Source: Octopus vulgaris (taxonomy: Eukaryota). From it: a stretch of 64,000 nt of DNA. Each line of letters opens with the position of its first letter. The stretch's first letter is position 1. The stretch covers positions 46,624,001 through 46,688,000 of the forward strand of contig OX597825.1 of NCBI GenBank assembly GCA_951406725.2. Reading direction: 5' to 3'. The position numbers were made by a program, and so were the translations under genes. Below the pieces are notes generated by a model. The model saw nothing but the letters and a program-made list of their open reading frames with translations, searched no databases and was not told the origin of the DNA. Shown here one piece after another: positions 4,057 to 56,269 of this stretch.

Positions 4057-5514
4057 TGTAAATGTAATAAGTGACAATTATTCGGTAGCAAGATAAAACT
4101 CTGAGTTTCGGATGCCTAGGTGGAAATCCACACCACCATCTCTTCAGTTATCCGGCAATCGGAAAAACGCTATGAAAAATGACCGTTATACAAAGGGAAA
4201 TTACTGTGTTATTGACCGCTATTTACAGAGGGTAATTTCAAGGCTAGGTTTAATAATCACACTTTGAGCTTTAGGCACTGGGACAAAAGGAAAACGACCA
4301 AATTATCCAGTCATATATGGTCATTAAAAGATAAAGGTGTCAGTTACAAGATCCGTTGGGAGATTTTAGCCAAATGTAAGTCCTACACCAACGGCAGCGG
4401 AAAGTGCGGTCTATGCGACATGGAAAGATGGCTCATCTGTTAAAGCAGCTTAGACCCCGCTACATGTCTAAACTCAAGGACAGAACTTTTCAGATCATGG
4501 CCATATGTGACCAAATTTTTGCTACAGATAGAATTTGCTTTCTATATTATGTCCATGCACAAGATTTTTTACCTCATTATATACCTTTTACTTTGATTTT
4601 ATTTATATATTTTTTATACATATATTTCTTACATATTATAGAGAATTTGGTTTATAGATATATTTTTTACACATAATTTTTTCTGTACAATACCTTCCAC
4701 CCTGCATTTTTTCCTATACCTATATAGATGTGTATATGGAATCCTTTGTGCGCGTGTGTGGATGTGTACGTGTGAGCGGGTATGTGTGTATATAGATATG
4801 TGCATGTGTGCGGGCATGCGAGTACGTATGTATATAGACGTATTTTACTCAGTGTTTTTACAAAATTTCCCTATATATATATGTGTGTGTGTGTGTGAGT
4901 ATGTGTGTGTGTGCACGCGTGCGTGTGTGTATTTTTTTTTAAACGTATATATAATCCTTTTTGTGCGTGCGTGTGTGTGTGCGTATATAGACGTGTGCGG
5001 GTATGTGCGTATATAAACGTGGTTTACTCTTTGTATACTTCCTTATGCCTTTTTTCTGTATTGTTACCCATAACCCTGTTTTTTCTTGTGCTTGTGCGTA
5101 TGTAGATGTATGTATGAACTTTTACGGTGGGCGTGTGAGTGTGTGGGTTTGTATGTATTTGCATATACATTTGGCGAAAGATGTGAGTGAAGATGTGTAA
5201 GTTTTTCTAGTGAGGGTGGACGAATGTATGCATACGCATGTGGGTGTGCAGGCGCACATGTATACATGTATACTATGAACTTTTTACCCTTAATTAGCGG
5301 TAAAATTACCCTTAATTAGCGGTCATTCAAATAGCTCTTTTGTCTCAATAGCAGTCAATAACACAGTTATTTCCCTTTGTATAATGGTCATTTTTCATAG
5401 CGTTTTCCCGGTGGCCGGATAACTGAAGAGATGGTGGTGTGGATTTCCACCTCAGCATCCGAAACTCAGAGTTTTATCTTGGCTACCGAATAATTGTCAC
5501 ATATTACATTTACA
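4057..5514. mobile_element. Penelope-like element with inverted terminal repeats each containing a hammerhead
   Basis: 4057-4225 is the reverse complement of about 5345-5514; internal + strand GIY-YIG remnant 4236-4510 (FKARFNNHTLSFRH...LSSHIWSLKD...CGLC). Confidence 0.75.
5417..5480 (+). ncRNA. Hammerhead ribozyme motif (second copy on - strand at 4092-4154)
   Basis: GATAA-CTGAAGA-GATG...CATC-C-GAAA-CTCAGAG-TT-TTATC: core, stems I, II and III all pair. Confidence 0.7.
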
Positions 5515-20375: not shown

Positions 20376-20740
20376 TACCTACAAATATATGAGACACCGC
20401 TTTGTAAAATGCCCTCAGTTGATTAATATGTATGTTACCATCCTACTCTTTCTTGACTGGAAGGTGAACATAGATTTTAAGTCAGATACATTGGTTTCTT
20501 GAAGAATTCTAGATTCCAGAAAAACATTAACTCAATGATAATAAATCTCTGAACGAGGTATAGACAGTAACTGCACGACAATGTGAAGTATATTTGCCAT
20601 CTAAATATGGCTAACCACTAAGGGTAGATGTTCCTGTAGCTTGTAGCCCCAGGAGAAATCTTCTCCAGCTGGCTGTTGACACACTTTCTGTGCCCTATCG
20701 GTATTTGCAAAGGGAGGTCATCCCTCCCTCGTCAACCTAA

Positions 20741-20799
20741 GTGATATGCACAGACTGCAGTTTCTGGGTATTGACCCGTCATCAGCGCACGGCAATCAC
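20741..20799 (-). ncRNA. Type I hammerhead ribozyme with complete core
   Basis: - strand GTGATTGCCGTGCG-CTGATGA-C-GGGT CAAT ACCC-A-GAAA-CTGCAG-TC^TGTGCATATCAC; palindromic stem III; bulged stem I; predicted cut between 20753 and 20752. Confidence 0.8.
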
Positions 20800-20800
20800 C

Positions 20801-22387
20801 TTTCTCTTTATTATAGGCATGTAGACTGAATATAAAAAAAGGACATTACAATTTACATACAAAACAATACAAAATTTGGGGTACATAAAACAAATAATGA
20901 ATATGAAATGAGTTATGTGTAATGGGAAATGGAATGGCTTACGAGTCCCTCAAGCTCGCAGTTTCATTTATACATTTTGCAACTGTTCCACTTATCCATC
21001 AGATATATATTCGATGACATCCTCCATCCCAATCAAGTTGGGCAGGCTATCATAGCGAACGTCTATTTTACTTACTTTAATCTTTTCTTTAAATGTCTCT
21101 ACCAATTTGTCTATTTTTTCTTTTTCTATTAACACCGCTCTAGCGCTTGGATCGAACATGCCGTTTTCTAATTTCACTCGTATCAGTCCTTTTGTTTTTG
21201 TTAATCTTTTTTCAATCTCCATATTTTTTTCATAAAAAATTAAGCTTCTTATGTTTTCTCCCGTAGGTCGTCCTGTTTGTTTTACATGATTTACTCTCTA
21301 AATCACCTCCCTCCTCCATTCTCCGCATTTCTCTTTTCTGGCTTTACCCTCTTCACTCATTGTCACTGTCTTCAGTTCCTGGGTTCGAATCTCTGTACTT
21401 TTTCTAATTGCTGTTGTCTTTCTTCCTTCATTTTCTTCCACCCTTGTTCTCTTTCTTTCCGCCGTTTTTTCTTCAACTTTTTCTTCTTCCTCTTTTTCTT
21501 CTTTCTCTGCTCTCGCTGCGTCACTGCACATTTTCCCCTCTTTTGCCTGCGCTTCTCTTAGGGGACACCTTGCTTGCATATGTCCCATTCTTTTACAGTT
21601 ATAACATATTGGTGGTCTCCCCTCCACCACCACTCTCAGTCGAGTTTCGTCAGGGAGCACTAACTCTTCTGCAATGTTGTACAAATCTGGCAGGGTTATA
21701 TGTATCAATGCTTCCACACCATAACTCCACCAGTTGACGTCTCTCGATCTTTCAACCTTTAGGATGTCCACATCCTCCCTACAATTACAAATTATAGCTG
21801 CTACAAGTCTCTCTACCTCTAATTCCGGCGGCACCTTTCCTATTTTCACCTTGGTTGCTCGTTTTTCACAATAGGACGAGAGAAGCATCCACCTAGCTGT
21901 TCTTAGTATCATGGTAGCATGTTTCTTGGCCTCCTCCTCACTTTCAAACTGCACCTCCACGGTGGCGAACTTCCTTCCTCTTGCGTAGGAGGTCGTGCTG
22001 TCTTTAATTTCCGTAAGACATTCCTCAATGTCGTCTGTTTCTGCCACTTCTATTTTCTTGTTGGTCACACTCCACATTCTATATACAATAATCTTTTTCC
22101 TCGCTTTTTCTGCATCTTCCTCCGGCGGTGTGATCCGTAAGCAATCACCCTCCTTCTTGAAATTTTCGAAATATTTCTTCAAACCTTCCTTCTCAATTAA
22201 TACTTCTTTCAGCTGTAACATGTCAGCTGACAGGCTTTTGCCTGCTGCCTGGGCGTAACTTATTGTTTGCATACCCACAAAGGGTAGCTACAAAATAATT
22301 TTCAAAATTCAAACAATTTCTAATAACAATTTCTACAACTCACAATATCATAAACTCCAACTCCGCAAAAAGCAATACTTCAACGAC
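20801..22387 (-). mobile_element. ORF1-only non-LTR retroelement, unit 1
   Basis: TSD gcgcacggcaatcacc (20785-20800) / gcgcatgacaatcacc (22388-22403); AATAAA 6 nt from 3' end; no RT or endonuclease. Confidence 0.8.
20992..22272 (-). CDS. Gag-like/LINE ORF1p-like protein (RRM-like region, CCHC zinc knuckle, charged linker, unknown C-terminal domain); one in-frame TAG at 21298-21300
   Basis: MQTISYAQAAGK...GRPPICYNCKRMGHMQARCP (CX2CX4HX4C); ORF 20992-21222 is in the same frame beyond a single TAG. Confidence 0.8.
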
Positions 22388-22403
22388 GCGCATGACAATC
22401 ACC

Positions 22404-24038
22404 TTTCTCTTTATTATAGGCACAATGGCCTGAATGCAGAGGGGACATAACAATACAATACAGGACATGGGGTACATATATTAAAAATACAAAAAGGATG
22501 ATATGAAATGAAATGAAATATTAACAATGAATTAAATGAAATGACTTACGAGACCCCCAAAGCTCGCAGTTTCATTTACAATGAAATGATTACAGTTATA
22601 CTATCTGGGGTGTTCGGCCGTAATGTAAACGAGTAATTCATCTTGCTCTATAACTCCGGGCAAACTGTCATATCGAACATAATGCACCATGGCCACAGCT
22701 GTATCTGAAAACAAATTTCTTAATTTATTTACCGTCTCTTTTTCCACTATTGCAGCCTTCATTTGGTTATCGTATATTCTCGGGTTCAATTTTACTCTCG
22801 TTAGATTTTTCGTTATTGCCAATTTTTTCTCAATTTCTTTATCTTTTGTGTACAATATTACAGCTCTGAGATTCTTTCCTTTAGGTCTTCCTCCTTCCTT
22901 GCATACTTTCAGACATTTTTCCACTTTTGCTGACTATTTTTCCCATTCCTCCCACCTTGAACCTCCACTCAATTTAGTTGCTGCATCTCTCCCTTCGTGT
23001 GTTCGATCCTCTGTCTCGTCAGCATACTTCTTTTTCTTTTTTTGGTCTTTGGGTGGTGATTCCACCCGTGTTCGCTTTCTATCCTCTTTTTCTTGTTCTT
23101 TCCCCTTCCTTCTCTTTCACTAACTCGTCGTCACTTTCCATATTATCTCCTAAATCCTCTGTCAAAGCTCTTATTGCTTCCTCCAGTGTTATCTTCTTCA
23201 CTTGTATTTCTCCTTCAGGACACACATCCTTCATGTGCCCTCTTCTCTTACATTTATAACACACCGGAGGTCTCCCCTCCACCACGACTCTCAGTCGTGT
23301 CTCATCGGGGAACACCAACTCCTCCGGGATGTTATACAAATCTGGCATGGTTATGTGGATTAAGGCTTCTACCGCATAACCCCACCAGTTTATTTCATTC
23401 GACTTTTCCACCTTAAGTATGTCCACGTTCTCTTTGCAGTTGTAGATTATTGCAGCTACTATTCTTTCGGTATCAAGTTCCGGTGGAATTTTGCTTATTC
23501 GTATCCTCGCCGCTCTTTTTCCGCAATAACTAGGGAGTAATACCCATTTTTCCGATCTCAACACTGTCGTTGCGTTCCTTTTCGCTTCATCTTCATTTTT
23601 GAAACGAACGTCTACCGTAGCGTATTTTCTACCTCTATTGTAGAAGGTAGTTCTTCCTTTTATTTCTTGTAGACATTTTTCAATCTCTTCCACTTCTGCT
23701 TCTTCTAATCTTTTTGAGACCACATTCCATGTTCTGTATGTTATGGTTTTTTTCTCCTCTTTTTTCACTTCGTCTTCAGGTGGTGTAACCCTCAGACAGT
23801 CTCCTTCCTTCTTGAAGCTGTCGTAGTATTTCCTCAGATTTTCCTTCTCGATAATTATTTCTTTTAACTGTAATTCGTTCGCAGCCAGGCTTTTGCCTGC
23901 TGTTCCCGCATAAGTTTGGGCTTGCATACCCAACAAAGAATTCAACAATTCAACACGACGCAACAGTTTCCAACAACAATAATCGACAAAATTCAACTCA
24001 CAACCGCAAATCCGAAAAACCGACACAAACACCTCCGC
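22404..24038 (-). mobile_element. ORF1-only non-LTR retroelement, unit 2
   Basis: TSD 22388-22403 / gcgcgcgacaatcacc 24039-24054; 3' end tttctctttattataggca shared with unit 1; AATAAA 6 nt from end. Confidence 0.8.
22601..23927 (-). CDS. Gag-like/ORF1p-like protein, paralogue 2 (frameshift near 23100, TAG at 22934-22936)
   Basis: MQAQTYAGTAGK...GRPPVCYKCKRRGHMKDVCP; C-terminal ORF 22601-22924 homologous to that of unit 1 (RVKL...VRYDSLP). Confidence 0.78.
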
Positions 24039-24062
24039 GCGCGCGACAATCACCGGTTTTCG

Positions 24063-25922
24063 CATTTCTTTATTTGGCACTAAGGCCACAACACAGAGGG
24101 GACACTACAAGGACAGACACAACACCACAGTGGGGACAATAAACATAAAACGGATGAAAATGAATATTATATAATAATGACAAATGAAATGGCTGCATGG
24201 GCCCCACTCCACATGCAGTACCATTGGAACGTTTTTACATTCTGTTATTACAGTCTTATTTTATCTGATTTTTCCTCTTTTTTTCTGTTCATTAAATGTC
24301 ATTTTTTCTTCAGAAATACTCTTTCCTTTCTCTTTTTTCTTTTTTTAAAAAACTTTTTTGTTTTCCTTTTAACGCTTCATATACTGCTCCAGCTCTCTCA
24401 GTTCGATTACTGTTGGCAGCTCATTGAACTCCACTACCGTTCTGCCAGGGTCGATTCTATCACCGCACCTGTCTCTAAGTTTTTCATAAACCACCTTATC
24501 GGCGACCAAACCTTTCACTCTCTCAGAGTACGTGTCTCTGGGCATTTTCACCCTTACGATGTTTTTAAACTTCAAAATTTCCTTTTCCACTTCCTTGTTT
24601 AGGTAAAAAAATTCCATTGTTTCTTCCCTCCTCTAGGCTTTCTCCTTTCTTCCTCTCCCAATATAGGTTCCTCTGTACTCTTCTCTGAGGCTGGAACAAT
24701 ATTCTTCTCTATCTCCACTATAAACAGTTTCTCCATCTCACCCTCTTGTAGCTGAGTCTCTGAAACTTCTGCCAAATCACATGTCGTCCTCATCCTTGTT
24801 TCCTTCTTCTCTGGCTCATTGTCACACAACTTCTTAATTATTTTTTCACTTCCCTTCTTCGCCTTACTTTTGTTATCTTTCTTTCTCATTACGTCTTCCT
24901 TTTCCACCTCTTCTTTCTTCTTTTTCTGGTCAGTCAGTGGCGGGCTTGCCCTACCGCTCCTCCTTTTTCTTTCCACTGTCGTGAAACCCTCTTCCGCTGC
25001 TTTTTCACTACTCTCGACCGTCTCTGCCTGTTCGATATTTTCTTGATTTTCTCTCTGTTGTTTCTGTGGGCATCTCGCCTTCATATGTCCCTTTTCGCCA
25101 CATTCAAAACACACCGGCGGTCTGCCCTTCACCTTCGTTCTCAATGAGAAACCGTCAGGCAACACTATCTCCTCGGTTATTCTATTGAGGTCTTCTACTG
25201 TTGCCTGGATTGTTAATTCCAATCCATAGCCCCAGTAGTCCTGCATATATGTTCTGCTGGCCTTTAGTATTCTGGCCCCATCTTTCATGTTATACATAAT
25301 GGCTGTCATTAGCCATTCCTCCTCCAGCTGTGGGAGGGGGAGGGCACTTGACCGACCGGAACTTTCGCTACACGTTTTCCGCAATATGATGGCAAAAGGA
25401 TCCATACTTCCGAACGAATTGCCTCCATCGCATATTTTAATGCTTCCTCCTCCGATCTGAATCGCACATCCACAGTGGCATACCTTCTGCCTCTCGTTCT
25501 GAAGGTTATAAACTTTTTAATGCCTTCCAACACTTTTACAATTTCTTCTACTGCTGCTATTTCTATTTTCTTCATGGCGACCTTCGTGGTCTTGTAGGTC
25601 ACCGTTTTCTTTAGTATGCTGTTCGTCAGCTCTTCGGGTGGCGTTAATTTTATCGTTTCCCCCTCCTTCTTTATCAGCTTCTCGCAAGCTTTTATTTTCC
25701 TGTCGTCGACTAATATTCCATAAGTCTTTAGTGTTCTTTCCTCTGCTCCTCTCCCAGTTGTAGCTGCATAGCTGCGGCCGCCTGCTGGCGACTTCTCCAT
25801 TTTCCTCAATGGGAAAATATAACGACACAAAAATTAAACAATATTAACAATGATAACGACGACCAGCAAAAATGAACAATTAATTACTCACATTAACGCT
25901 CCGACTTCAACAACTCGAAAAA
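24063..25922 (-). mobile_element. ORF1-only non-LTR retroelement, unit 3 (more divergent family)
   Basis: TSD aatcaccggttttcg (24048-24062) / aatcaccagttttcg (25923-25937); AATAAA 6 nt from 3' end. Confidence 0.8.
24369..25800 (-). CDS. Gag-like/ORF1p-like protein, paralogue 3 (frameshifts near 25340 and 24620)
   Basis: MEKSPAGGRSYAA...RGRRYATVDVRF...LLPSYCGKR and GRPPVCFECGEKGHMKARCP; C-terminal ORF 24369-24617 homologous to units 1 and 2. Confidence 0.75.
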
Positions 25923-26220
25923 AATCACCAGTTTTCGGTGGAGGGTCCCAATGCAAATACATATATCCTTTTTCCAGTGGCTTTCGTCACTGATCTTGAA
26001 AAAGTGTATACAAGCAATAATAAATCTCTGAACGAGGTATAGACAATAACTGCACGACAATGTAAAGTATATTTGCCATCTAAATATGGATAACCACTAA
26101 GGGTGGATGTTGCTGTAGCTCGTAGCCCCAGGAGAACATCTTCTCCAGCTGGCTATTGACACACTTTCTGTGACCTATCGGTATTTGCAAAGGGAGGTCA
26201 TCCCTCCCTTGTCAACCTAA

Positions 26221-26281
26221 GTGATACGCGCGCACTGCAGTTTCTGGGTGGTGTAACCGTCATCACCGCACGACAATCACC
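26221..26281 (-). ncRNA. Second hammerhead copy of the retrozyme, core mutated
   Basis: GTGATGA instead of CTGATGA and GTG instead of GTC at the cleavage triplet; stem I CGTGCG/CGCGCG and GTGAT/ATCAC retained. Confidence 0.65.
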
Positions 26282-26846
26282 GGTTTTTGATTGACGAAAG
26301 CCACTGGAAAAAGGATATATGTATTTGCATTGGAACCCCTCCATTGAAAACTGGTGATTGTCGTACTCAGAAACTGCAGTCCGTGTGTATCACTTAGGTT
26401 GACGAGGGAGGGATGACCTCCCTTTGCAAATACCGATAGGGCACAGAAAGTGTGCCTATAGCCAGCTGGAGAAGATGTTCTCCAGGGGCTACAAGCTACA
26501 GTAACGTCCACCCTTAGTGGTTAGCCATATTTAGATGGCAAATATACTTCCCATTAACTCAATAGCTTTATATCAATTAACCACATAGATGTTTTATAAA
26601 ATTTCTTCTGCTGTTGCTGCTTTAAATCAAATTGGTGGCAGAAGTGGGATTTTCTCCTAGGGTGTAATTTTTCTTCCAAGTCCTTTCTCCTGTATCAAAA
26701 ATTAAAAATAATGTTCTTTTCTTTGTTCAGTCAAACACAATTTTTCTAGCTGCTATGTATGTACTAAGTTTATTCTTAAACTATTTGACTGAAGTTTGTG
26801 TGAGCTTAGTCCATGTCTACTATTTTTTTGTATAGAATTATATTAT

Positions 26847-27013
26847 TGCAGTGTGGAAGGTGTTTATAAGCCAGCACGGAATTTTGTCAGTGAAATTTTG
26901 GCGTGGTCTCAAAGCGACAAAAATATTTTGGCAAATTAAATTTAAATGCTGAAGTGAATCTAACGGATTTTGTGTGTTTCTTAAATGGCTTATAAACACC
27001 TTCCACACTGCAA
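26847..27013. repeat. Short inverted repeat pair (MITE-like)
   Basis: ttgcagtgtggaaggtgtttataagcca ... tggcttataaacaccttccacactgcaa. Confidence 0.6.
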
Positions 27014-30606: not shown

Positions 30607-31190
30607 CATCATCATCATCATTGTTTAAAGTTCATTTTCCATGCTACTGGTATGGGAGCCAGTCAGAGGTCATTGACATCGGCTACATTTGGATGGTGCT
30701 TTTTATGTGCCACCAGCACAAGGGCCAGTCAGGCAGTCCTGGCATCGATCACATTTAGATAGTGCATTTTATGTGTCACCAGTACAGGAGCCAGGAGCCA
30801 GGAGCCAGTCAAGGAGCACTGGCATCGGCCACATTCAGATGGTGCTTTTTACGTGCGACCAGTACAGGAGCCAGTCAGGTGGACTTGGCATCAACTACAT
30901 TCGGATGGTGCTTTTTATGTGCCACTGACACAGGGGCCAGTCAGGGGGCACTGGGATTGACCATGTTCAGATGATGTATTTTATGTGCCACTGGAACGGG
31001 AGCCAGTCAAGGGGCAATAGCCACAGCTACGATTTTGGTTTTACTTAACTCAACATGTCTTCTCAAGCATATCATATCGTCCGATGCATCAAGGGTACTT
31101 TTAAATAGGCCGGACACACAACACTGGCATCGGCCATGGCTGCAATCTCACTTTAGTTGCCGGGTCTTCTTAATCACAGTCTCCTGTCAT
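30607..31190 (-). mobile_element. RTE-associated SINE/3' UTR with (CAT)n tail and internal ~60-bp minisatellite
   Basis: (cat)n-gttta...ttccatgcta end; repeated atggtgcttttatgtgccac..gccagtcag units; related copies near 5623, 14640, 42062, 49756 and 58995. Confidence 0.7.
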
Positions 31191-33483: not shown

Positions 33484-36400
33484 TCATCATCATTGTTCGA
33501 CCGTGGTCGAGACAATGGAATTTACTATGTTACGCCAGACTTCACGGTCCATCATAGCATTATGGAGGTCCTGTTGCTGGATGCCTGTATCCCTGGAGAT
33601 TACATCAGGATAGGAGAGTGTGCGTCCTCTGGTATTGCGAGTAGATGGCTTCCAGAGGAGAAGAGTAGAAATTACTTCTTTTTCAGCTCTACAACAATGT
33701 CCAGCAAACTGGACTCTCCTACCTTTCACAAGAGATGACACAGGTGGTAGTTTCCCATATATTTGCATTTTGGTTGGATGGCGCTTCCACGAGAGATTTT
33801 GAGCTCTCATAAGGAGGCGAGTGTAGGTTCCATCCAACCGCCTCTCAAGCTTCTTATAGTAGCCATATAGTAGAATTGGTTCGACTGTGGCTTTGAATAT
33901 TTCAAGTTTGAAGTCTCTACTTAGATTTGATGACCAGATCTTATGCATGTCATTACAGGCTGACCAGGCCATACCCTTTCTAGTTAGAAAGTCTTTTCCA
34001 GATGATGATATGTATGACCCAAGATATTTATAATCAGAAACCATATTTAAAGGCGCACTGTTGAGAGTATGGATGATGCAATCACTGTTGGACAGGCACT
34101 TGTTTATGTATTCAGTTTTGGCCTCATTGAGGTAAAGACCTACACAATTTGAGACTTGTTCAAGAGATTGTAAAAGAGACTGGGCATTGGAGAGAGAATC
34201 ACTGATAAGAGCGATGTCGTCAGCAAAGTCAGTGTCTGTCAAGTACTCAGCTGGGTGTCTGGAACTTCTTCTTGGTTTTATTTCAAAGCCCTTGCCAGAG
34301 ATGGTATCAACTGACATACATAGCACATAATCAACAACAATGATGAAAAGAAATGGGGCGAGTGTGTCTCCCTGCAGTATTCCGGCTTTGATTGAGAAAG
34401 ATGATGTTTCTCCATCAGGGGTTAAGATGGTTGGAGACGTATCTGTGTAGAGGACCTTGATGGCAGAAATAATTTTGTCTGGTATCCCATAGAGCTTAAG
34501 GATTTCAAACATCTTGTACCTATCTACAGAGTCGAACGCTTTAGAAAAGTCTACAAATACCATTGCAAGATCGCGATGAAATGCTTTTGATTCTTCAATA
34601 AGTCTGCGCAGGCATAGTATCTGGCTCAGCGTTGAGCGCCCATGTCTGAATCCATTTTGGTTCTTTCGGAGCAAAGGTTCAACAAAAAGGACAAGACGAT
34701 TTAGGATCAGTTTGTTGTACAGTTTTGCAGCAATTGACATTAGAGATATACCCCTATAGTTGGTTACGAGGGATAAATCGCCTTTTTTGGGTATTGGAAT
34801 GATTTGAGATTGGTGCCAAATCTTTGGAGCGACAAAGGTGGAAAGTGCGTGGTTCCAGAGGTTGAGCAAAAGTGTGTGAAATTTATCATCCTTCCAAATT
34901 ACAGCTGGGATGTTGTCGGGACCAAATGCTTTCGAGGCTTTTAGTTGCTTGGTGGCTGCTGTTAGTTCAAATATGGTAAAAGGGGAGGTGTTGATGTCCA
35001 GCGTGTCTGATATAGGCACACTTGGAAGAGTGGGGTTATCAGGGATTTTGGCATTCTTCTCAAGGAGGTTTTTAAAATGGGTTGACCAATTTTCTAAACG
35101 CTTCTTAGCTGATCCCCCTTTAATTCTAATTGATGACCCAGAATTTTTGCCTGATAGGTCTTTGATGGATTTCCAGGCGAGATGGTGTTTTTTACTAATG
35201 TGCTCTTTCGATAGTTTACTAATTTTGCCATTGATAAATTCGACCTCGGCGTTCAAGTAAGCCTCATCAAGATTCCTCCTGGCAGCTATGAGTTGGATCT
35301 TCAGTGACTGGGATGGAGAACGGTGGTAAGCTAGTGATATAGACTTTATATGGTTTCTGGCTTCAATGACATTTGGGGAATTAGAAGGTTTGCTCTGGCC
35401 CCTACTCTTCTTTTTGGGAAGAGTAGCCAGTGCAACTTCCTCTGTTGATTTGATGAGGCTGCTGTATACTTCTTCAATGTTCTCAGCATCTATTTCAGAA
35501 GTAGACAGAGATTGAAATGTGTTATAGACCTCAATAGTAAATTGTTTGGACATATCGGGGTTAGATAAGACTTCCTCCCAGTCGATCATTTTGATCGGGT
35601 GAGGCTTAGTTTTTTTGGATGAGCGAAGACTAAGCTTAACGGTAGCTGATACAATTCTGTGGTCAGAGCCGACAGAACTAAAGGAAGAGTAGGATCTCGA
35701 GTCTTTAACACTATTGCGCCATTTCTTTCGAAAGATGAGGTAGTCAATTTGTGCCCTATCACCAAGTGGGGACTCAAATGTCCAAAGTTGACGTTTTGGT
35801 TTCATAAAAGAATTGTTGGAGGTGTAGAGATTAAATTCCTCCAAGAAGTCTTTGAGCATTTCTCTGTTCCGATTAGTTTTAGAGTTGAAAGTAAACTTGG
35901 TCTCATCGGGTCCTAGTCTAGCATTCAGATCACCAGCTATAACTAGAAAATTATGGAGAGGTACTTGCTCAATGGTTGAACGAAGGGTTGTATAAAAATT
36001 TTCAATTTCGTCTGCCACAGACGAATTATGTGGGCTATACACACATACCAATGTTGTTTTGGGGTTTCCATCTATCTCAAGTACCATAATTCTAGGTGAG
36101 ATTGACTCTATACTCAAGAGAGTATCACTAGCTTTTGATGAAAGTAGAAATCCGATACCTCCAACTGTTGAATTAACAGTATTCTTTGATGCTAAGGAGA
36201 TTACAAGTTGATAAGAACCGACTTGATGGTATTTGAGGATGTTGTCAGGGTGGTAAAATCGGTGTTCTTGGACAGCTATTATATCAATGCCATGTGATTC
36301 TGCATTTGCACCAAGTTCTTCTAGACGGCCAAGAGAGCTGAGGGTGCGGGCATTGAGGGTGCTGAGTATCGTATGATTTTTACAGCTGATGAGGTGTTTG

Positions 36401-36771
36401 TTTGGTGTTGTTTGGTTGGGAGCTGACTCTTCTCCATCAGGTGATACCCGTCTGTTAAGATTGAGGGCATCACCGTCAATGGATGCCCTTGGAGGTGCAA
36501 CATGATCAGAGACAGGACCCGGCAAAGCAGGGGCTGGACCTACATCCGCAGGTATACCATTAGGTCTGGTTCCCTGGGGAAGAGGAACCCTGGTGCAGTT
36601 AATTGTAAATTCCATAGTCTTTTCAAATGGCTAATAATGTGTGCGCGCACCACTACTACACACATTGGAAAGCAATGTACAACCAAGTACTAAAAAAGAT
36701 CTTTCCTCCTCCATGAAACAAAGCTGTTCCCGCTGGACGTCAACCAGTATTTCTAAGCTACGGACCGAGTG
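33484..36771 (-). mobile_element. Near-intact full-length RTE-clade LINE
   Basis: 10-bp TSD ataaatctta (33474-33483, 36772-36781); (TGA)n tail; single 1041-aa ORF. Confidence 0.95.
33490..36615 (-). CDS. APE endonuclease plus reverse transcriptase of RTE LINE
   Basis: TLNARTL, AVQEHR, GDLNAR, IDY, SDH (APE); NYRGISL, DFSKAFDS, GILQGDTLAP, FADD, YKYLG (RT); no internal stop. Confidence 0.97.
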   Translation of the reverse strand: MEFTINCTRVPLPQGTRPNGIPADVGPAPALPGPVSDHVAPPRASIDGDALNLNRRVSPDGEESAPNQTTPNKHLISCKNHTILSTLNARTLSSLGRLEELGANAESHGIDIIAVQEHRFYHPDNILKYHQVGSYQLVISLASKNTVNSTVGGIGFLLSSKASDTLLSIESISPRIMVLEIDGNPKTTLVCVYSPHNSSVADEIENFYTTLRSTIEQVPLHNFLVIAGDLNARLGPDETKFTFNSKTNRNREMLKDFLEEFNLYTSNNSFMKPKRQLWTFESPLGDRAQIDYLIFRKKWRNSVKDSRSYSSFSSVGSDHRIVSATVKLSLRSSKKTKPHPIKMIDWEEVLSNPDMSKQFTIEVYNTFQSLSTSEIDAENIEEVYSSLIKSTEEVALATLPKKKSRGQSKPSNSPNVIEARNHIKSISLAYHRSPSQSLKIQLIAARRNLDEAYLNAEVEFINGKISKLSKEHISKKHHLAWKSIKDLSGKNSGSSIRIKGGSAKKRLENWSTHFKNLLEKNAKIPDNPTLPSVPISDTLDINTSPFTIFELTAATKQLKASKAFGPDNIPAVIWKDDKFHTLLLNLWNHALSTFVAPKIWHQSQIIPIPKKGDLSLVTNYRGISLMSIAAKLYNKLILNRLVLFVEPLLRKNQNGFRHGRSTLSQILCLRRLIEESKAFHRDLAMVFVDFSKAFDSVDRYKMFEILKLYGIPDKIISAIKVLYTDTSPTILTPDGETSSFSIKAGILQGDTLAPFLFIIVVDYVLCMSVDTISGKGFEIKPRRSSRHPAEYLTDTDFADDIALISDSLSNAQSLLQSLEQVSNCVGLYLNEAKTEYINKCLSNSDCIIHTLNSAPLNMVSDYKYLGSYISSSGKDFLTRKGMAWSACNDMHKIWSSNLSRDFKLEIFKATVEPILLYGYYKKLERRLDGTYTRLLMRAQNLSWKRHPTKMQIYGKLPPVSSLVKGRRVQFAGHCCRAEKEVISTLLLWKPSTRNTRGRTLSYPDVISRDTGIQQQDLHNAMMDREVWRNIVNSIVSTTVEQ

Positions 36772-53782: not shown

Positions 53783-54285
53783 AGCTGGCCGCCAACACTT
53801 TTTTCCGCAAAATAGGGGTAGCTTATCCTGTTCAGGCTATATTATTAGCATTATCCTGCGTTTGAGAATTTAAGATCACTTCTTTACCTTTCTAAGACAT
53901 CTCAACGCTTCTAAAGCAAACTTCATTTGTTTGTTTATGTTCATCATAATTTGAATTTAATGTATGATAGCGTCTCATAAAGCGAGATTTCTATATATCT
54001 TAAATTTGCAGAACAATTTGTGGTGTGGGTGGTTTAGCTTAATGATTCAGAGCACCGCGACGCGTAATCACGGAGGTGTGAGTTTGAGTCTTATAGCCAG
54101 CCACCAACACTTTTTTCTGCAAAATAGGGTTAGCTCATCTTGTTCAGACTATATTATTAGCATTATCCTGTGTTCGAGAATTTAAAATCACTTCTTTACC
54201 TTTCTAAGACATCTCAACGCTTCTAAAGCAAACTTCATTTGTTTGTTCACGTTATTATTAGCATTATCCTGTGTTCGAGAATAAT
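53783..54285. repeat. Partial tandem repeat, period about 312 bp
   Basis: ccaacact...aaaataggg...cattatcctg...ctaagacatctcaacgcttctaaagcaaacttcatttgtttg near 53791 and again near 54103. Confidence 0.8.
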
Positions 54286-54288
54286 TTG

Positions 54289-54338
<50 letters not shown>

Positions 54339-54470
54339 AAGGTTAATCCAAATGGGAAAACAGAAAAAACAACAACACGTGGAACAATTACAGTATTATT
54401 ATTATTAGGCGCTCAGGAAAATGGAAGAAGTATGACGTTTCGAGCGGAGCTCTTCGTCGGAAACATAGGA

Positions 54471-55883
<1,413 letters not shown>

Positions 55884-56269
55884 TTTTAATCATGAGTGTG
55901 GGTGATTGGGCGAGGCTTCACAAGTGGAATAGCATAGAGTCTCTCTTTATCTACATCAAGCACTATTAAATATCTCATTCTGTGAATTATTTAATTGTGT
56001 ACTGCAAGGATCTCTCTGTATGTACACATGAACAGAACATGGCCAAAGAGTTACAATTTTATATTGACCCCCTACATAAATCGCTTATAACCTACAATTT
56101 TTGCTGTGATGGACAATGAATAGTATGGCAAAAGAAAAGAATACTTAAAATGATAAGTTTTTTTAATAATTCCCTTTTTAATGCTTTCAGAAACATTCAA
56201 TTTGGACCTGCTCAAAGCAAACAGTTCAATATCTCTTGATTGGTTGAAAAACATGTATTCAGTATTCTT

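Follow-up and report, generated by a model that had tools for sequence, protein, structure and literature searches.

ORF1-only LINE units with tail-less 3' ends, stacked in a hammerhead-bearing repeat of Octopus vulgaris

A stretch of 64,000 nucleotides from Octopus vulgaris (contig OX597825.1, positions 46,624,001 to 46,688,000, hereafter the window) carries three units in a row on its minus strand, and raises the question of how their 3' ends were made. As the initial annotation had pointed out, all three units close with AATAAA, another 6 nt and then target sequence, with no A tail (plus-strand tttatt at 20807, 22410 and 24069), and a ribozyme cut was placed about 48 nt beyond unit 1. The proposal was that self-cleavage by this ribozyme, or poly(A) cleavage inside the target, defines the end of the RNA.

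Three stacked units and their target repeat

Unit 1 occupies positions 20801-22387 (minus strand), with its AATAAA at 20807-20812, a terminal hexamer at 20801-20806 and a reading frame that is broken near 21298. A 16-nt target duplication (22388-22403, minus) parts it from unit 2 (22404-24038, minus; AATAAA at 22410-22415, frame broken near 23079), whose 5' boundary has an uncertainty of about 5 nt because the start of the element resembles the target. Between units 2 and 3 lies a target stub (24039-24062, minus) of overlapping duplications in two insertion registers 8 nt apart. Unit 3, a frameshifted member of a more distant ORF1-only subfamily, extends over 24063-25922 (minus; AATAAA at 24069-24074) and was inserted 8 nt upstream of the site used by units 1 and 2. 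Its 15-nt 5' target duplication (25923-25937, minus) starts at the predicted transcription start of the target repeat, as judged from a spacing counted by eye. The units measure 1.6-1.9 kb between duplications and show no ORF2 from ORF1 to the 3' end. It is likely that they were inserted serially, with target duplications of 15-16 nt, into a 354-nt retrozyme.

The terminal 6 nt read GAGAAA in units 1 and 2 and GAAATG in unit 3, and the bases that follow are retrozyme sequence with no A run. Since tttatt occurs five more times within 20400-27000 (four times inside units and once outside), the hexamer alone is common, and the specific trait is its position at the element end rather than the hexamer as such. 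For units 2 and 3, the boundary at +6 is fixed independently by the bases before the 5' duplication, which differ from the hexamer. For unit 1 we infer it, because its 5' neighbor is the end of unit 2 itself.

Each unit codes for one protein with a CCHC knuckle (zf-CCHC), which in unit 1 is accompanied by an RRM-like region, a charged linker and a C-terminal domain, and this protein resembles a ZCCHC3-like cluster with high confidence. The frames are broken in all three units of the window; elsewhere in the family many frames of 440-480 aa were found (150 matches scored among 14765 candidates). Compared to the ORF1 proteins of autonomous LINEs from this genome, unit 2 shows 28-40% identity over 180-234 residues, with E-values down to 1e-53, and the ORF2 of these relatives has the order APE-RT-zf-RVT, its best solved relative being human L1 ORF2p. 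A protein search with a full ORF1 returned no match at E<=0.001 among 7995 candidates. Judged from the similarities to autonomous LINEs, the units derive from L1/Tx1-type LINEs and retain ORF1 only; "Tx1" is a working label that we assume from the ORF1 type and the targeting, as no named Tx1 reference turned up in the searches.

The DNA downstream of unit 1 is recognizable as a separate 354-nt hammerhead repeat, retrozyme A, the first ~263 nt of whose monomer form the downstream part of the target (20538-20800, minus). Retrozyme A is a multi-copy monomer with a single hammerhead, of which tandem copies and dimers occur; 3868 candidates were counted in the 2.8-Gb genome (40 scored, yielding 58 matches), mostly without a unit. 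Its copies frequently stop at the position that corresponds to window 20538, probably the start point of its own reverse transcription. The type I hammerhead motif in the window is situated at 20740-20800 (minus, core 20785-20753), with a predicted cut at 20753/20752, i.e. 48 nt past the unit end at 20801, in agreement with the distance first given. The motif has a 4-bp stem II and a 2-bp stem III with a palindromic loop, and its stem I is weakened by two changes relative to the family majority. An Rfam scan gave no match at the gathering threshold. The type I assignment is based on the core motif, on stems I and II and on covariation across families: of 126 hammerhead motifs from fetched loci, 100 have C-G at positions 3 and 8, and 20 have the compensatory U-A. 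Stem III is palindromic in 81 of these motifs, or in 99 when G-U pairs are counted. The active fold of the window copy was computed at -9.0 kcal/mol against a minimum of -20.1 (11 kcal/mol above), and the folding z-scores of the monomer, -1.26 to 0.43, are not diagnostic. Hammerheads with a palindromic stem III are described, in the passages cited here, as cleaving poorly as monomers and being active as dimers (PMC4209133), and in a single-copy transcript the ribozyme would probably be left uncut.

On the other side of the units, an upstream retrozyme monomer (25938-26281, minus) contains a hammerhead at 26266-26233 that is predicted to be inactive. Next to it are inverted and truncated retrozyme segments (I1, I5 and I6, at 26282-26555), in the manner of a Penelope-style 5' inversion. 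The same inverted layout is common among empty retrozymes, i.e. those without a unit. Overall, the target repeat fits the non-LTR retrozymes as outlined in part of PMC7229834.

Unit ends with and without an adjacent ribozyme

The initially proposed model, in which hammerhead self-cleavage ends the RNA 48 nt inside the target and a second hammerhead upstream can free a multi-kb monomer able to circularize, has several points in its favor. By classing the context of 100 listed ends (out of 138 exact family ends) by eye, we found 65 just 5' of a hammerhead, 11 followed by a target stub, 22 in unrelated DNA and 2 unclear. The hammerhead-adjacent ends fall in at least six repeat families, at 47-68 nt from the predicted cut, a distance that varies by subfamily. 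A genome search for the element-end pattern with the core heptamer at most 30 nt further on gave 53 matches, as compared to none for the reversed control; the association between element end and hammerhead is not a matter of chance. The motifs also look selected as catalysts, as suggested by the C3-G8 and compensatory U3-A8 pairs counted above.

However, the identical end occurs where no ribozyme follows. No A tail was present at any of the 100 listed family ends or at any of 136 ends in fetched loci, irrespective of context. Out of 20 fetched off-target loci (of the 22), with inserts identified by end motif and duplications, eight had duplications of 11-19 nt starting from +4 to +6 and no piece of retrozyme. 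Among 20 LINE loci chosen only by their zf-RVT domain, 16 end in AATAAA plus 6 nt with neither tail nor hammerhead, and this end was not seen in the other four. A LINE inserted in an abundant SINE-like repeat (L198-L226) ends in this way, tail-less, in 26 of 29 copies at one position, and the host repeat, a putative SINE, has a 3' end of the same type. Likewise, two of 30 U2 loci (L346 and L353) have such a LINE end 3 nt before U2 +1. The tail-less AATAAA+6 end is evidently common to autonomous LINEs, ORF1-only units and the SINE-like repeat, regardless of target. In the window itself, only unit 1 has an adjacent ribozyme motif; behind units 2 and 3 there are 16-24 nt of target before the next unit begins.

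The position of the ends relative to the cut also argues against a ribozyme-made end. None of the hammerhead-adjacent copies examined by eye stops at the cut, and the repeat continues past it; the corresponding script-made class of 87 ends includes two false calls, and a few ends were missed. Duplications were found at 59 of 149 family ends. They start at +6 in 19, at +5 in 13 and at +4 in 27 cases (two mismatches were allowed, which leans early) and end at +14 to +17 in 41 of the 59. Accordingly, "+6" is to be read as the usual family boundary with an ambiguity of 1-2 nt. In a sister subfamily, a long run of A is found within the terminal hexamer at three of 28 ends, representing either true tails or homopolymer expansion. 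One locus of this subfamily (L061, G000:C4:70042600-70052500) consists of five near-identical ORF1-only units head to tail, with a period of ~1.79 kb, one of them with a long A run.

A religated circle would likewise give copies through the cut site, and at L033, L037, L044 and L055 the upstream motif is intact, so that dimer cleavage is possible there. The active upstream hammerhead and multi-kb circle once proposed for the window locus are not supported: the upstream motif (26266-26233) has two core changes, C3-to-G and C17-to-G, and a disturbed stem II. Because its core is mutated twice and stem III is of the dimer type, neither dimer cleavage nor release of a circle is expected in the window. 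As for rolling-circle signatures, an element-monomer-element order was seen at four of 113 ends, none of them a clear product.

Read-through into the target, in turn, was borne out, as the downstream DNA is target rather than element and some insertions are palindromic chimeras that bear retrozyme sequence. In the tail-out palindromes L077, L038, L117 and L180, both arms pass from element sequence over the junction, then over the cut site, and continue for 130-265 nt in the retrozyme; the arms of L077 are 98.2% alike over 451+223 nt. No duplication was seen before the truncated arm in these four. Chimeric element-retrozyme sequence has evidently been copied beyond the ribozyme cut site. Given the palindrome arms, and a PLE protein that according to the portion of PMC11167929 used here extends both DNA strands, the chimeric RNA is likely to have been copied as a whole, having been religated or never cut, which suggests a Penelope-style co-mobilization of LINE sequence at the four loci. 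Two further candidates were left out of this count, namely L307, with a 10-nt duplication at its short arm, and the only partly palindromic L109.

With the same end found in the absence of a ribozyme, no copy that stops at the cut and chimeras that run 130-265 nt into the retrozyme, the idea that ribozyme cleavage sets the 3' end and explains the missing tail is not supported, and we regard the model of a ribozyme-made end with circles as very improbable. The ribozyme appears not to be needed for the tail-less end. Since the family ends are tail-less also where no ribozyme follows, it is likely to belong to the landing site rather than to produce the unit ends.

The chimeras bring up a different reading of the locus, with the hammerhead repeat as the pseudo-LTR of units that would themselves be non-autonomous Penelope-like elements. 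The order repeat-unit-repeat with inverted 5' segments is consistent with this, and the four palindromic insertions imply that a chimera can be moved in Penelope style. Yet the units have duplications of 15-17 nt, stacked units are parted by a duplication alone, one and the same unit clade is found in different repeats, and ORF1 is homologous to that of APE-type LINEs. Off-target copies without any repeat, some of them with duplications, largely refute a Penelope identity, which we give hardly any credence, and Penelope-style movement would be a secondary route for the units. An autonomous PLE with retrozyme A as its pLTR was not found in the 30 examined of 148 GIY-YIG loci.

Choice of insertion site and mobilization

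A young autonomous LINE (ORF2 of 1140 aa, copies 97-99% alike; loci L132, L133, L137-L141 and L303-L310, and a tandem array on G000:C2 near 73.05 Mb) is found at a single base position of retrozyme E, flanked by a 17-nt duplication, and the family includes a 5'-truncated copy (L304) at that site. Target duplications together with such an independent 5'-truncated copy are traits of TPRT-type targeting. The retrozyme E hammerhead bears the compensatory U3-A8 pair. In A-type retrozymes, ORF2 fragments were present at two of 24 ends, with a 3' UTR unlike that of units 1-3. From the autonomous family at retrozyme E and these fragments we conclude that endonuclease partners exist. Units 1-3 could not be matched to an exact autonomous partner among the ORF2-bearing elements examined at A-type retrozymes. 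A 3' end in common with an autonomous partner was found for the sister subfamily, while units 1-3 have only AATAAA and the hexamer in common. L167 was considered as a partner and rejected, as the RT fragment there turned out to be part of a different LINE, one that has an end of its own.

What distinguishes the sites within the repeats may be the position of a promoter. A hexamer common to U2 upstream regions, putatively PSE-like, is located at 25989-25994 (minus), 57 nt before the unit 3 site; in an snRNA-type promoter the PSE would lie about 60 nt before +1. By eye, this hexamer was counted at -57 to -60 of U2 in four loci, and the insertion sites of families D, E (with two mismatches) and F, like that of unit 3, have it at -55 to -59, which would place unit 3 at the predicted snRNA-type transcription start of the retrozyme. 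Units 1 and 2 sit 8 nt past this predicted start, and the registers of other subfamilies lie 15-34 nt before the core. As registers differ among units and subfamilies, one promoter position cannot account for all sites.

A tree was made for 52 endonuclease-less units out of 136 (ends that offered a minimum of 700 nt upstream and of 400 nt that could be aligned to unit 2). Target labels change 14 times on this tree, as compared to 34.9 in shuffles (none of 200 as low), and the register steps along it from about -33 over -25 to -18/-15 relative to the core. These patterns are what would be expected if RNA guided the targeting, i.e. if read-through and 5' target bases paired with nicked DNA and were the main cause of a subfamily's return to its own repeat and register, with a loosely specific endonuclease. 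Off-target sites having little sequence in common point the same way, as does L125, whose 5' duplication has a base typical of the targets of other copies. Downstream target RNA is moreover reported to make R2Ol more efficient and to be required by R1Bm, in the sections cited of PMC6795142 and PMC7265360. However, kin share labels, different ORF2 partners would produce the same pattern, autonomous elements are present at two retrozyme families, and three targets are intermixed inside the GAGAAA clade. The 22 off-target ends among the 100 listed, eight of them with clear duplications and precise ends, also count against guiding, as does the endonuclease specificity that PMC1919474, in the part referred to, reports for Tx1L. 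At the level of single bases the hints point both ways. The base at position 9 of the 3' duplication is changed in window unit 1 as in L077, and in one of 24 other retrozyme copies, which hints that the donor can be a source of copied target bases, whereas the first target base of L304 and L305 is that of the recipient. As the main cause, RNA guiding seems to us possible but doubtful; homology guiding can coexist with trans-mobilization by ORF2.

We consider such trans-mobilization the probable explanation: an L1/Tx1-type ORF2 that acts serially in trans, recognizes the 3' UTR, starts at AATAAA+6 on a longer RNA and uses a site at or behind a borrowed promoter. The enzyme, borrowed from an autonomous relative, would insert the units one after another. 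In the sequencing runs compared, all of them contigs, no RNA end or cleavage was seen. Cleavage and polyadenylation usually take place 10-30 nt after AATAAA. Reverse transcription would begin about 6 nt past AATAAA on an RNA that extends into the target, with the 3' UTR and its AATAAA as the putative recognition and start signal, and the RNA past +6, i.e. target bases and then any poly(A) tail, would normally not be copied. The favored site, at or just behind the snRNA-type start of the retrozyme, may provide the element with a promoter. More tentatively, read-through bases may pair with the nicked target and so keep repeat family and register heritable.

A wider role for the target was also considered. 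Here the target would do the RNA work: it would supply the promoter, and its own 3' processing, by dimer cleavage of the hammerhead in retrozymes and by snRNA processing in U2, would trim read-through into a guide. Endonuclease-less elements would pass on target and register by their RNA flanks and would ride on the Penelope machinery as element-retrozyme chimeras or circles, in a three-level chain of parasites. This scheme we hold to be unlikely. The locus is part of a natural experiment on target choice and target switching in LINEs, in which near-identical endonuclease-less elements inherit repeat family and register by descent. Endonuclease versus RNA homology is thereby turned into a testable question, which bears on programmable retrotransposon insertion, and the chimeric palindromes add LINE sequence moved by retrozyme or Penelope machinery.

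Known systems and other repeats

Non-autonomous LINEs that retain ORF1 include HAL1, HeT-A and Ag-Sponge, from the clades Jockey, L1 and CR1 (PMC5786205 and PMC5753468, in the passages used). As in those, the octopus units have ORF1 only and no RT, and their 3' end is of the type found in the autonomous LINEs of the genome. Unlike them, as far as these passages describe them, the units are of L1/Tx1-type lineage with an RRM and CCHC ORF1, are tail-less and are concentrated in hammerhead repeats. Target-specific elements treated in part of PMC4494074 are e.g. Tx1L in Tx1D, Tx1-Mar and SINEU-3 in Mariner-N4_AMi, and Keno in U2. With Tx1-Mar and SINEU-3 the units have in common a host that is another mobile element, a 16-nt duplication, tandem copies that sandwich the duplication, and independent 5'-truncated insertions. 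In contrast to the Tx1 LINEs and SINEU-3 as described there, the octopus target is a hammerhead retrozyme entered at or behind its predicted start, in several registers, and 22 of 100 listed ends are off target.

Non-LTR retrozymes and the hammerheads of PLE pLTRs are covered in the cited portions of PMC7229834, PMC4209133 and bioRxiv 10.64898/2026.07.22.740005. The octopus repeat resembles these in its monomer of ~350 nt, in a type I hammerhead whose short stem III is palindromic, and in having inverted segments as well as both tandem and dispersed copies, but differs from those described in hosting LINE insertions and sometimes carrying LINEs along. As in R2Ol and R1Bm, the RNA may pair with the nicked target through target-derived bases at its 3' end (PMC6795142 and PMC7265360, same sections). 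In R2, going by those sections, the ribozyme is at the 5' end and owned by the element, whereas the octopus ribozyme motif is owned by the target and any role of it is hypothetical. A literature search, with most subscription journals and Repbase outside its scope, returned no paper on Tx1-type or ORF1-only LINEs that target hammerhead repeats, and the part of the octopus genome paper used (PMC13282606) names L1-Tx1 and Penelope among its families and uses neither "ribozyme" nor "retrozyme". The present analysis adds a test of the claim on the 3' end, along with the drift in register and the palindromic chimeras.

Hammerhead-like motifs were also found away from the units. A motif of retrozyme family B with palindromic stem III lies at window 58045-58016 (minus), and two near-identical motifs with a long stem II, at 5423-5473 (plus) and 4147-4097 (minus), are ~1.3 kb apart and form a possible PLE pLTR pair. 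The elements at L045 and L199 differ from each other but end in one further repeat, which 50-60 nt downstream has a hammerhead-like heptamer and may represent an additional family of retrozymes. A 1046-aa open frame with endonuclease and RT domains, unrelated to the units, extends over window 33490-36630 (minus) and is, by its look, presumably an RTE-type LINE. Lastly, a degenerate array of 66-nt repeats is located at window 30630-31137, and the region 54001-56000 has a very low GC content (10-16%), is repetitive and contains long open frames.
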